Positions 2,206 to 10,026 of a stretch of DNA of 10,101 bases are shown here, in pieces. Numbering within the stretch: the first letter of the stretch is position 1; every line of letters starts with the position of its first letter. The notes beneath the pieces are model-generated. The model had not been told where the DNA came from. It made no database searches and saw only the letters and a list, made by a program, of their open reading frames with translations. The stretch comes from a virus. The translations under genes and the position numbers were made by a program. The DNA lies in UHGV virus genome UHGV-1546666. The stretch is one strand, 5' to 3'.

Positions 2206-2307
2206 TCATGGTATTCTGCTCAAAACTAAATTTCTGGAGCGTTTCGTTGGAAGGTATTTGCAGTTTTCGCAGATGATGTCGGTGAAACTTCGTCGCTGTC
2301 GCCTCAT
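2206..2307 (-). pseudogene. ninE: ninE remnant: 26 NinE-like codons followed by unrelated sequence and an early stop (33 aa total)
   Basis: Minus-strand translation from ATG 2307..2305 reads [26 protein letters not shown] then LVLSRIP*. The first 26 residues match my recollection of lambda NinE ([29 protein letters not shown]..., 60 aa). The ATG overlaps the stop of the upstream ORF as ATGA. The ORF is below the 60-aa track threshold. Confidence 0.5.
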
Positions 2308-2906
2308 GCCGCCCTGTCTCCCCATCTTGCTTTCATTGTTTCATTTGCAAATCGCCAGAATCTTCCTTTGTGATATGAGCTTTCGCCATTACAGCAACGA
2401 CTAATTGACGAACTATCAAATCCTTCTCTGACAGCATCCATAGCTGCTTCATAATAAACCTCCTCCCCAGTTTTCATGTCAGTAGAAATAACAGCTTTAC
2501 TGGCAGGATGATCACCACTAAATTTACCTAGCGATATAGGTATTCTTCCATTTTGTTTATATCCGTGCTTTGAGTTTTCAGAATGTGATACCCATTCAAG
2601 GTTTTCAGCCCTATTGTCATCTCTTTGCCCATTTTTGTGATTAACTACCAAGCCATCACAGAACCCTGTACAGAATGCTTTCGCAACTATCCTGTGGGCG
2701 CTGTATTTCTTACCGTATACCTTTATTTGAAGATATCCTGTCGACTTGCACTTGAATGGTTTTACGCTAGTGCCATTAATTATTTTCTTATATGGCCTCT
2801 GTCTGGTTGATGTTACTGTAATTTCCCTCGTAATAGACCTGAAATTTCCTTTATTGCTAACCTGATAAAATGGAATTCCTTCGATATCTACCCAAACCTC
2901 AATCAT
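2304..2906 (-). CDS. HNH homing endonuclease (NUMOD4 motif plus HNH_3-type nuclease motif), 200 aa
   Basis: [21 protein letters not shown] is a NUMOD4-like motif. [11 protein letters not shown]...[25 protein letters not shown] is an HNH_3-type motif (His-Arg, HxNG, DNR, ENLEW). A GGAGG RBS sits 4-5 nt before the ATG, which overlaps the ninB stop. The region is visibly AT-richer than the lambda-core genes. Confidence 0.85.
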
Positions 2907-3488: not shown

Positions 3489-3704
3489 TCACTTTAAATC
3501 CAGACTCCGGATAATTCTGTTGCGCTGAAACTCATTGTTGAGTTTGAACAACCGTCGAAGAACACGGTCACGCGGATAGCGTCGTGCGGCAGGTGAATGC
3601 TCATACAACTCATCAAGCGGCAAACTGGACGATGAACGATACCGATACCAACGCACCAACTCTTCACGAAAATTAGCCCTGACAAGCTCAGCTATCGTAC
3701 TCAT
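3489..3704 (-). CDS. Hypothetical small phage protein, 71 aa, Arg-rich
   Basis: Track ORF. The ATG at 3704 overlaps the stop of an upstream 30-codon ORF as ATGA. Lies in the ren-to-ninB interval. No family recognised. Confidence 0.5.
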   Translation of the reverse strand: MSTIAELVRANFREELVRWYRYRSSSSLPLDELYEHSPAARRYPRDRVLRRLFKLNNEFQRNRIIRSLDLK

Positions 3705-3793
3705 TTCTTAAAGCCTCCAATTACTCTTCCCCAAATAAAAAGGCCTGCGATTACCAGCAGGCCTGTTACAAGCTCAGTGATGTAGATGGTCAT
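3701..3793 (-). CDS. Candidate 30-aa hydrophobic single-helix peptide (MTIYITELVTGLLVIAGLFIWGRVIGGFKK)
   Basis: Found by manual translation; it is below the track threshold. The ATG (3793..3791) overlaps the ren stop as ATGA and the stop overlaps the orf71 start as ATGA, so the frame is exactly bridged between two genes. A terminator-like hairpin lies inside it, which makes the call ambiguous. Confidence 0.35.
   Translation of the reverse strand: MTIYITELVTGLLVIAGLFIWGRVIGGFKK
3735..3764 (-). terminator. tR2-like hairpin downstream of ren
   Basis: 8-bp stem aggcctgc (3741-3748) / gcaggcct (3757-3764) with an 8-nt loop. On the minus strand it is followed by TTTTATTT. Position is analogous to lambda tR2, but it overlaps the candidate small ORF. 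Confidence 0.4.
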
Positions 3794-4080
3794 CTTTTAA
3801 CTCCATATACCGCCAATACCCGTTTCATCACTGCACTCTGGCGACACTCCTTAAAAATCAGGTTCGTGCTCACCTTTCCTTCCCGTTCTTCCCTGGTAGC
3901 AAACCGGTAATACACCGTTCGCCAGACCTTACCATCAATGACAAGGATTCCTGCCCGCGCCATTTTAGCCGCAGCCTGATTTATACTGGTTACGGTTGCG
4001 CCTGTTACCGCGGAAACGTCCTGTGCACAGAAGTTCTTATGCGCCCCGAGGTAATGAATAATTGCCTCTTTGCCCGTCAT
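3790..4080 (-). CDS. ren: Ren protein, 96 aa
   Basis: MTGKEAIIHYLGAHKNFCAQDVSAVTGATVTSINQAAAKMARAGILVIDGKVWRTVYYRFATREEREGK... is near-identical to my recollection of lambda Ren (same length and start). Confidence 0.85.
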   Translation of the reverse strand: MTGKEAIIHYLGAHKNFCAQDVSAVTGATVTSINQAAAKMARAGILVIDGKVWRTVYYRFATREEREGKVSTNLIFKECRQSAVMKRVLAVYGVKR

Positions 4081-4147
4081 ATACTTGCTCCTTTCAGTCC
4101 GAACTTAGCTTTAATTTCTGCGATCTTCGCCAGAGCCTGTGCTCGAT

Positions 4148-4774
4148 TTAGAGGTCTGCCGCCCATGACAGTTGTTTTACTGGTTCAGGTATCGTCTCAC
4201 CACGGTTAATTCTCGCAGTCATATGGACAAGCTCATCTGCGGCCTTACGGCGTAATTCCGCATCAGTAAGCGCATTGGCCCGCATGTTCTGATACAGGTT
4301 GGTAACCAGCCAGTAGTGCGCGTTTGATTTCCACGGATAAGACTCTGCATCCGGATACAGGCCTCGCTTCCGGCAATACTCGTAAACCATATCAACCAGC
4401 TCGCTGGCGTTTGGCAGCCCGGCGGTAACGGATGCTTCTTCCCGGCACCAGGCGACAAACTGCCCGGGTGATGGCAGGAATGGTCGATTCTGCCGACGGG
4501 CTACGCGCATTCCAGCGTTAACCTGTTCCATTGTGGTGATCCCGTTTTCCCGGAAAGCCAGAACCCACTGGCGGCGGATTTCGTTCAGTTCATTCTGGTC
4601 ACGGTTAGCCAGGCTCGCCGGGAAAGTTGCCAGTAACTGGCTGAACACACCGTTGATGATCTGCGCTACCTGCTGTACCTGCGGCTTTTCGTCGTACTGT
4701 TCCGGCATGTTGTTGGCGATCCGACGCATCTGCTCACGGTCAAAGTTAACCATCTGTGCGGCGATGTTTTTCAT
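4148..4774 (-). CDS. P: Replication protein P (DnaB helicase loader), C-terminally frameshifted: 208 aa ending ...KQLSWAADL
   Basis: Residues 1 to about 202 match lambda P (MKNIAAQMVNFDREQMRRIANNMPEQYDEKPQVQQVAQIINGVF...). Downstream, a shifted frame (4170..4081) encodes MGGRPLNRAQALAKIAEIKAKFGLKGASI*, which is the conserved P C-terminus and ends overlapping the ren start. Confidence 0.85.
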   Translation of the reverse strand: MKNIAAQMVNFDREQMRRIANNMPEQYDEKPQVQQVAQIINGVFSQLLATFPASLANRDQNELNEIRRQWVLAFRENGITTMEQVNAGMRVARRQNRPFLPSPGQFVAWCREEASVTAGLPNASELVDMVYEYCRKRGLYPDAESYPWKSNAHYWLVTNLYQNMRANALTDAELRRKAADELVHMTARINRGETIPEPVKQLSWAADL

Positions 4775-5650
4775 AAATCCACCCCGTAAATCCAGTCAGT
4801 GTTTGTCAGGTCGAGTTTTGGTTTGCTGGCTGTCACGCCTGCCTGTTGCTTGTTACGGTTGATTTCGAGCTGGGTCCACTTGTCGCGGAGTTTGGCCGGA
4901 CTTAGCACGTTACCGGACCAGAAGTTGTCCTGGCAGGCCCAGCGGAACAGCACGCACATGTCGCGGTGGTTACGTCCGTCACGTTCACGCATCAGGCGGA
5001 TATCGTTAGCCCACCCTGCAAAATTCGGTTTTCTGGCTGATGGTGCGATGGTCTTCACCATGTCAAACATCCACTCTGCGGCGGTCAGGTCTTCTGCTGT
5101 TCCCCACTTGCTGCCGCTCTGAATTGCAGCATCCGGTTTAACCACAGAAAGATCGTTTTCTGGCTGGTCAGAGGATTCGCCAGAATTCTCGGACGAATAA
5201 TCTTTTCTTTTTTCTTTTGTAATAGTGTCTTTTGTGTCCCCCTGTTTTGAGGGATAGCAATCCCCTAATTTGAGGGATGTTTTATCCCTCGTTTTGAGGG
5301 ATGCACCATTCTGAGATGTTTTTATTTGGTCCAAACATGCCGCCTTGCTGCTTGATAATATTCATTCTGACGAGTTCTAACTTGGCTTCATTGCACCGTT
5401 TGACAGGTAACTTTGTAATCTCGCTAAGTTGAGAATCGGTGATTCTGTCCATTGGTTTATTCCACCCATAGGTTTTACGCAGAATGGCAAGCAGCACTTT
5501 AAACTGTCGCTTGGTCAGATCTGCGCCTGAATAAGCCTCAATCAGCATATTTGATAGTCTGGCGTAACCATCATCGAGATCTGCCACATTACGCTCCTGT
5601 CCGGCAAAGTTACTTCTGCCGAAGTTGAGTATTTTTGCTGTATTTGTCAT
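4771..5650 (-). pseudogene. O: Replication initiator O, split by a frameshift inside the origin iteron array into an N-terminal 122-aa ORF (5282..5650) and a C-terminal 187-aa ORF (4771..5334)
   Basis: ORF 5282..5650 (MTNTAKILNFGRSNFAGQERNVADLDDGYARLSNMLIEAYSGADLTKRQFK...ISEWCIPQNEG*) matches the lambda O N-terminal domain. ORF 4771..5334 contains KTRDKTSLKLGDCYPSKQGDTKDTITKEKRKDYSSENSGESSDQ... to the C-terminus ...TDWIYGVDL, matching the lambda O linker and C-domain. The two are in different frames and overlap by 53 nt. Confidence 0.8.
5237..5301. repeat. Replication origin iterons (three O-binding repeats) with flanking AT-rich region
   Basis: Three inverted-repeat iterons on the plus strand: tccccctgttttgaggga (5237-5254), tcccctaatttgaggga (5261-5277) and tccctcgttttgaggga (5285-5301). 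The gagggat cores are spaced 23 and 24 bp apart. An A/T-rich tract (about 5200-5235) follows in the direction of O transcription, as in lambda ori. Confidence 0.75.
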
Positions 5651-8605: not shown

Positions 8606-8703
8606 GATCACCCAACCACATAAGCTGTGGGATGCAATGCCGAAGCAACCGTCTCAGGAGGAGCTTCGAGATTGCATCGCCAAAGTTTATTCGGGAGGAA
8701 TCT

Positions 8704-8976
8704 ATGTCCAGAAAAACAGAATTTAAAGGCACCGCAGCTTCTCGCCGTAGAGCTCGTCGCGCAAACCTGCAAAGTCAGGAGTCGATTAGCTCCGACAAGC
8801 TACACAGGCCAACCCCTTCACGAGTGGTCTTGCAATGCAAGCGCAAACCAGCAATGAGAGCAGAAGTTATAACTCTGACAACGTTGACCAGAAAATATGA
8901 AGGTTCAACTTGTCTTCCAAACGTAGCCATTTACGCTGCAGGCTACCGTAAATCCAAACAACTGACAGCAAGATGA
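8704..8976 (+). CDS. N: N-like transcription antiterminator, about 90 aa, with arginine-rich motif
   Basis: Track ORF trimmed to the ATG at 8704 (RBS GGGAGGA). The N-terminus MSRKTEFKGTAASRRRARRANLQ carries an arginine-rich motif that resembles the phage 21 / P22 class of N proteins (from memory). Located downstream of the pL and nutL candidates. Confidence 0.7.
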   Translation: MSRKTEFKGTAASRRRARRANLQSQESISSDKLHRPTPSRVVLQCKRKPAMRAEVITLTTLTRKYEGSTCLPNVAIYAAGYRKSKQLTAR

Positions 8977-9819: not shown

Positions 9820-9885
9820 ATATGCATACCAATAACGCTTCACTAGAGGCGTTTTCGTTATGTGTAAATAAATAAGGAGCACACC

Positions 9886-10026
9886 ATGCAATATGCCATT
9901 GCAGGGTGGCCTGTTGCTGGCTGCCCTTCCGAATCTTTACTTGAACGAATCACCCGTAAATTACGTGACGGATGGAAACGCCTTATCGACATACTTAATC
10001 AGCCAGGAGTTCCCAAAAATGGATAA
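9886..10026 (+). CDS. cIII: CIII (FtsH inhibitor), 46 aa, apparently truncated by a premature stop
   Basis: Manual translation gives MQYAIAGWPVAGCPSESLLERITRKLRDGWKRLIDILNQPGVPKNG*, which matches lambda CIII (54 aa from memory). RBS TAAGGAG. After the TAA the same frame still encodes NTYGYPD*, the expected CIII tail. Below the track threshold. Confidence 0.75.
   Translation: MQYAIAGWPVAGCPSESLLERITRKLRDGWKRLIDILNQPGVPKNG

Follow-up and report, generated by a model that had tools for sequence, protein, structure and literature searches.

The ninA frame and terminator tR2 between ren and the nin genes of a lambdoid Escherichia coli prophage

In virus genome UHGV-1546666 the DNA that joins ren to the next gene carries a 30-codon open reading frame whose start and stop are each shared with a neighbouring gene, and the same bases form a GC-rich hairpin followed by a T-run. 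This raises the question of what the frame is, and whether it is kept for its peptide, for its translation, or only as a passenger of the hairpin that it spans. An earlier note, made from the sequence alone, had proposed that the locus encodes a small membrane peptide, acts as a terminator, or does both, for example with translation modulating termination. We analysed the locus within a window of 10,101 nucleotides (the whole stretch of DNA that was available) and compared it with its relatives in other phages.

The locus and its setting

The genes of the window are those of immunity, replication and the nin region in a lambdoid E. coli prophage. The minus strand gene order is O, P, ren, ninA, a DUF7301 family gene (orf71), a 62-aa ORF (orf62) and ninB; on the same strand cII, O and P lie upstream of ren, and HNH endonuclease and Ant-like genes lie downstream of ninB. 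The opposite strand carries a cI-type repressor gene, an N-like antiterminator gene and the cIII thermoregulator RNA element (Lambda_thermo, 9873..9931, plus strand, 88.5 bits). The features discussed below are the following.

3790..4080, minus strand: ren, 96 aa, Ren-like exclusion protein (phrog_142, E 1.5e-40)
3801..3804, minus strand: SD-like GGAG, 7 nt 5' of the ninA ATG and within the 3' end of ren (read from the sequence)
3701..3793, minus strand: ninA ORF, 30 codons, MTIYITELVTGLLVIAGLFIWGRVIGGFKK, with an ATGA overlap at each end (phrog_5907)
3741..3764, minus strand: tR2 stem-loop, AGGCCTGC / TGGTAATC / GCAGGCCT, 8 pairs of which 6 are G-C (terminator scan and lambda identity)
3731..3740, minus strand: tR2 T-tract, TTTTATTTGG (terminator scan)
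3714..3718, minus strand: SD motif GGAGG of orf71, in the variable tail of ninA (read from the sequence)
3489..3704, minus strand: orf71, 71-codon DUF7301 family gene (PF23975, E 3.8e-26; phrog_1785)

The ATG of ninA (3793..3791) and the ren stop TGA (3792..3790) form one common ATGA at 3790-3793, and the ninA TGA (3703..3701) and the orf71 ATG (3704..3702) form another at 3701-3704, so that the bridging frame reported in the earlier note is exact to the base. The names it used for the flanking genes are also correct, ren by its phrog_142 match and orf71 by its Pfam DUF7301 match, and matching RefSeq E. coli genomes annotate "protein ren" at the former. Among 5,426 complete E. coli genomes, 3,320 contain a match to the 611 bases around ninA, with up to 99.7% identity, and RefSeq E. 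coli genomes have the locus at roughly 5,500 places.

In a profile search residues 1-26 of the ninA peptide match phrog_5907 (E 4.4e-17), and the orthologous ORF in PV340549, which has the same gene order and is annotated "NinA protein", is identical at 29 of 30 residues. The core of the peptide is identical to the lambda and P22-type ORFs, and its same-strand position between ren, which it directly follows, and the nin genes is also that of ninA. Neither Pfam nor NCBIfam has a model for the 30-residue peptide, and RefSeq PGAP leaves the ORF uncalled in the matching E. coli genomes.

A consensus scan finds a single terminator-like site on the minus strand around ninA. Its stem-loop folds at -15.7 kcal/mol (z -2.85), and the 8-bp GC-rich hairpin and subsequent T-run are present as previously described. 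The resemblance to tR2 can be stated more strongly than before, since the 36 bases from AGGCCTGC through TTTGGGG are identical to those of lambda tR2 at 36 of 36 positions and the placement after ren is also as in lambda; by this identity the hairpin is the lambda tR2 intrinsic terminator. If the transcript 3' end is placed by the usual release site of intrinsic terminators, RNAs released at the T-tract would end at about ninA codon 19-21, ahead of any stop codon. In lambda, RNA polymerase modified by N passes through tR2. The N-like antiterminator gene in the window occupies 8632..8976 (plus strand), and a search of the window for a lambda-type boxB found none.

We note several features of the neighbouring genes. 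The P gene is split, with a 208-aa ORF (4148..4774, minus strand) covering P-like loader profile positions 1-202 of 236 and the P C-terminus on a separate 29-aa ORF (4077..4166, minus strand) that overlaps the start of ren; comparison with phage PhiR12_1 shows a gap of 4 nt at about 4171. The O gene (4771..5650, minus strand) is apparently frameshifted into two ORFs in different frames, 5282..5650 matching O-like profile positions 1-121 and 4771..5334 matching positions 130-317. The split P and frameshifted O genes suggest either a replication-defective prophage or sequence errors. An HNH endonuclease ORF of 200 aa (2304..2906, minus strand, phrog_59) lies directly 3' of ninB and overlaps the end of ninB by 8 nt.

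The cassette in known phages

In lambda, ren is directly followed by ATGACCATCTACATTACTGAGCTAATAACAGGCCTGCTGGTAATCGCAGGCCTTTTTATTTGGGGGAGAGGGAAGTCATGA, and the ORF there, which runs from the ren stop to the ninB start, is MTIYITELITGLLVIAGLFIWGRGKS. The first 22 codons of this 26-codon lambda ninA (NC_001416, 40567..40647) are identical to those of the window except for I9V; the stem-loop, T-tract and ATGA overlap with ren are as here, and the stop likewise overlaps the next ATG. The tails differ, GRGKS in lambda (26 aa) versus GRVIGGFKK here (30 aa), because the next gene here is the DUF7301 ORF and not ninB, which is directly next in lambda but comes two genes later in the window.

P22 NinA (YP_063725) is 26 aa long and has 4-nt overlaps on both sides (PMC4837284). 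P22, phage L, HK630, mEp234 and 933W (orf4) carry the same cassette at >90% nucleotide identity, with ninA lengths of 24-27 aa compared with 30 aa here. The gene upstream is a DnaB-type helicase gene in the first four of these phages and a ren homologue in 933W, whereas it is ren in the window. The arrangement has moreover been annotated: the 933W record Y10775 describes "orf4; homologous to ninA gene" with a "rho-independent terminator" inside, the Salmonella phage L record has ninA with two terminator features inside, and "NinA protein" is annotated in the PhiR12_1, HK630 and mEp234 records. A preprint (bioRxiv 10.1101/2020.10.05.325894) credits Kroger and Hobom 1982, along with Cheng et al. 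1995, for the ATGA chain of the nin genes. Stop/start overlaps occur throughout this chain, in which ninA is one link and the only one that also carries an intrinsic terminator. By homology and gene position, the 30-codon frame and its hairpin are to be regarded as the long-known ninA and tR2 of lambda-like phages, and are in this sense already known.

Comparison of ninA loci

We sampled ninA loci from viral contigs only. The sample comprised 120 loci with the exact hairpin, two ninA-unbiased sets of 80 loci each, one with Ren and the other with DUF7301 as the anchor, and further loci that have the ninA 5' end but another base after ACAGG (111 loci) or that have GCAGG (21 loci). The downstream gene could be identified in 139 of 146 distinct type-1 contexts.

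An overlap of 4 nt (ATGA or GTGA) or 8 nt (GTGGCTGA) between the ninA stop and the next start is present in 125 of the 139 contexts and involves six different downstream genes: ninB, the DUF7301 gene, a gene of the 933W orf5 type, ORFs of 68 aa and 108 aa, and an ORF beginning MNLD. The tail of ninA changes with the gene downstream (GRGKS, GRVIGGFKK, GRGK, GRVNRG, GRGKCG); it is rebuilt for each of them. Upstream lie ren, two types of helicase gene (~480 aa) or ORFs of 54, 59, 92, 101 or 102 aa, and in nearly all sampled loci the ninA start is an ATGA on or beside the stop of the upstream gene. An SD-like motif (GGAG, GAGG or AGGA) is present at -16..-5 in eight of the ten upstream-sequence classes against a background of 12% in the coding sequence of the same genes (binomial P about 1.5e-6; the classes are not fully independent, as two of the ten have the same proximal sequence). 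The proposal that the double overlap is beyond chance is upheld by these two counts.

Within the cassette the terminator varies least. Among the 65 distinct contexts in the ninA-unbiased samples, only 2 sites of the 24-nt stem-loop vary, both as singletons, as against 9 of the 29 nt that precede it and 5 of the 10 nt that follow. The variant GGC>GGT, which recurs in 13 loci and several contexts, is synonymous and also keeps the pairing, changing a C-G pair to a U.G wobble. A second (type-2) allele keeps the first 32 nt of ninA and has another hairpin, GGGCUAUU-UACAC-AGUAGCCC, followed by U6 (-12.6 kcal/mol); a third allele (-14.1 kcal/mol) is set apart from the second by two differences, a double change of T-A to C-G and a change of U.G to C-G. 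The T-A to C-G change between these alternative alleles is covariation that favours an RNA hairpin. Versions of the second allele with T5, T6 and T7 place the tail in different frames.

Alternative-hairpin alleles occur in L284 (phage HF4s, 701..1000), in L288 and others, and in L292. The length of the T-run (5, 6 or 7) sets whether ninA stops, overlaps the next gene or fuses with it in frame, and the HF4s record annotates the fusion as a single long CDS that begins within the helicase gene.

The earlier note had named, as what would refute it, related phages that preserve the hairpin and not the reading frame. Such loci exist, but only as exceptions. A nonsense allele, W21*, leaves the hairpin intact and is present in 6 of the 65 ninA-unbiased contexts; in the Ren-anchored set, with duplicates still counted, 8 of the 14 DUF7301-type contexts have it. 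One-base slips in the T/G run break the ninA frame in four loci (L019, L044, L078 and L158). The most constrained element is the terminator, and the start of the frame and its openness through the hairpin are maintained as well.

The W21* change is TGG>TGA at codon 21, within the T/G tract, and leaves a 20-codon ORF (L170-type loci; L092 and L172). It uncouples ninA from the DUF7301 gene, with a gap of 26 nt from the stop to the next start.

A further allele contains an HNH endonuclease cassette of ~662 bp within ninA, exactly between codon 11 and the tR2 stem (L002 1831..2492, phage PA28; also L009, L109 and L418-L436). It is common to six different upstream-gene contexts, and the HNH stop abuts the tR2 stem. 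A homing element with the conserved ninA/tR2 sequence as its target would be expected to give this pattern.

Could the terminator be all that matters, the open frame being a passenger of a ~70-bp boundary block that serves as a homology patch for exchange of replication and nin modules? The block has >90% nucleotide identity in ~430 phage records while both of its flanks are mosaic, with the mosaic junctions at the ATGA and just past the T/G run; the third-codon positions in the loop are also invariant, and of the three frames through each hairpin, two are open in any case. This explanation, however, accounts neither for an SD-like motif at the right distance in about eight unrelated upstream genes, nor for the start codons of six downstream genes on the ninA stop, nor for a start site that is active in vivo (PMC4824070), and we consider it unlikely.

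Translation of ninA and termination at tR2

Published reporter data on lambda bear directly on the suggestion that translation modulates termination. With the preceding stop codon at least 30 bp away, lambda tR2 has an efficiency of about 0.9 in vivo in a reporter construct, and with that stop at 18 bp and the native upstream sequence, termination is still ~0.8; ribosomes that stop within a few bp of tR2 suppress termination almost completely (PMC4824070). The NinA initiation site, 30 bp upstream of tR2, is active in the reporter and was called "not weak", and yet translation from it lowers termination at tR2 by just ~10%, the change in efficiency seen when the RBS or AUG of ninA is silenced (PMC4824070). 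The same start site halves expression of an upstream reporter, and mutating it restores expression, which the authors of that study ascribe to ribosomes running off terminated RNAs that have no stop codon (PMC4824070).

A leader-peptide attenuator, with termination at tR2 set by how fast ninA is translated, would fit a short ORF lying over a terminator and the suppression of termination by ribosomes that stop nearby. Attenuators of the pyrBI type likewise have a short translated ORF over an intrinsic terminator. Unlike them, tR2 has no predicted antiterminator alternative and would be read through by N antitermination. When 3690-3800 (minus strand) was folded, the terminator hairpin stayed in both the MFE and the centroid structure with no competing fold predicted, pairing around the hairpin was no better than in shuffled sequences (z -0.5), and the frame has no runs of regulatory codons. 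The ren stop lies ~25 nt before the tR2 stem, and termination is already high when the stop is at 18 bp, so a ribosome terminating at the ren stop would no longer mask the terminator. Given the ~10% effect of silencing, ninA of lambda is no attenuator-type switch, and the suggested modulation of termination by translation is slight for the lambda sequence; we regard attenuation as very unlikely here and rejected it as a candidate.

The peptide

The other part of the earlier proposal, a small membrane peptide, is plausible. In hydropathy tests that were picked after the data had been seen, the 19-residue maximum is 2.03-2.04 for type-1 peptides and 1.52 for the type-2 peptide. Over the type-1 hairpin and T-run the 11 encoded residues have a Kyte-Doolittle score of 2.5, which puts them at the 99.8th percentile of random terminator-like sequences translated in open frames, and the type-2 hairpin encodes GAIYTVALFYW, at the 91st percentile of the same set. 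The HNH-insertion allele, with other DNA after codon 11, encodes GLSLLMVLTVYIIKYILY, and the frame is again open and hydrophobic. Here, in the PA28-type allele, the cassette replaces everything after codon 11 and the ORF goes on as GLSLLMVLTVYIIKYILYANKKTN; only 2.8% of shuffles with matched composition are open and reach the same hydrophobicity. Basic residues follow the hydrophobic run in each case (type-1, type-2 and HNH-insertion alleles). As predicted from these translations, a hydrophobic product of 20-30 residues may insert into the membrane.

Evidence for selection on the peptide itself was sought in two ways. In the synonymous versus nonsynonymous comparison for which the earlier note had called, codons 2-10 show ~4 synonymous and ~5 non-synonymous events among Escherichia and Salmonella phages, all conservative and too few for a conclusion. 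A scan of one genome per species for any synonymous spelling of MTIYITEL[IVM]TG found no diverged homologue: of its 19 matches, 15 are the exact lambda sequence in unrelated bacterial assemblies, and the remainder are Escherichia prophages and two metagenome-assembled genomes with the same cassette at the nucleotide level. Selection on the NinA protein therefore cannot be shown. The lambda-contaminated assemblies (among L399-L417) include Pseudomonas, Oceanobacillus, Bradyrhizobium, Shewanella, Nocardioides and Paenibacillus; many of the contaminant contigs have ~1x coverage, and three are ~48.4-48.5 kb long.

It is conceivable that NinA is primarily a functional single-pass membrane micro-protein, for instance one that modulates a host membrane protein or exclusion, with the terminator fitted into its coding sequence. 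The type-1 hydropathy values, the persistence of an open and hydrophobic frame where the DNA past codon 11 has been replaced, the basic residues that end the hydrophobic run and the conserved upstream SD-like motif all speak for it. The peptide is, however, dispensable, since it is removed by the lambda nin5 deletion, which takes out "ren-ninA - ninI" (PMC3349717), and is cut short in W21* alleles; phages without the entire nin region still form plaques (PMC10695390). In addition, W21* truncations and tail frameshifts are common, the type-2 peptide is much less hydrophobic over 19 residues, the scan of other species representatives gave no synonymously diverged homologue, and the hydropathy tests were post hoc. 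We find such a primary function doubtful, and of the membrane peptide proposal what stands is a hydrophobicity that outlasts replacement of the DNA after codon 11, for a product that the phage can do without.

The size and hydrophobicity of the peptide also recall type I toxin-like small killer peptides. The frame, however, lies inside an operon with 4-nt overlaps on both sides; moreover, no promoter-like site for ninA or for an antisense RNA was found on either strand in or beside 3701-3793, and no Rfam family matches at the locus. A type I toxin-antitoxin system was rejected on these grounds and is extremely improbable.

Proposed role of the ninA frame

What explains the whole best, and with high probability in our judgement, is that the locus is the lambdoid ninA-tR2 cassette of the early-right (pR) operon, ninA probably being a short translated frame over the terminator. 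The cassette has the replication module (O, P, ren) on one side and the nin genes on the other, and in the phage, polymerase modified by N would pass tR2. Ribosomes that have finished with the upstream gene, or that have bound at GGAG, would then initiate on the AUG within AUGA; where the transcript reads through tR2 they would translate across the terminator and end on the next gene's start codon, and in this way ninA would keep the nin-region chain of coupled genes unbroken. Against such a handing-on of ribosomes stand the SD motifs that the downstream genes have of their own inside the ninA tail, because of which coupling may be unneeded, and also the loci in which the frame is broken with the hairpin intact (W21* and the T/G-run frameshifts) and the phages that have an HNH gene inside ninA.

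A different purpose for a translated frame over tR2 would be to make the tR2-terminated transcripts non-stop messages, leading to tmRNA rescue and faster decay of the O-P-ren RNA. The sampled alleles keep the AUG, a frame open to the U-tract and, in eight of the ten upstream classes, an SD-like motif, and past the release site they are rebuilt, truncated (W21*) or frameshifted; since the frame is open to the U-tract, ribosomes starting at ninA on terminated RNA would run off its 3' end. The halved upstream reporter, restored by mutation of the ninA start site (PMC4824070), fits this reading. If it were true, the terminator would, without N, also shut down replication-gene expression post-transcriptionally. 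We think it improbable that ninA exists for this purpose, and return to a translated ninA frame that spans tR2 and links the replication module with the nin genes as the preferred account.

Significance

The original observation is correct and the arrangement non-random, and the object is the known ninA/tR2 cassette; the interpretation first given to it is partly supported, and it had missed that the arrangement was already described and annotated. As a discovery it carries little weight, the cassette having been named since the lambda and P22 sequence analyses and tR2 being a standard model terminator. It does point to a conserved micro-ORF that RefSeq PGAP leaves unannotated in thousands of E. 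coli prophages. For the lambdoid phages, the readings in which ninA passes ribosomes on to the nin genes, encodes a membrane peptide or drives decay of non-stop messages are separable by one point mutation at the ninA start.
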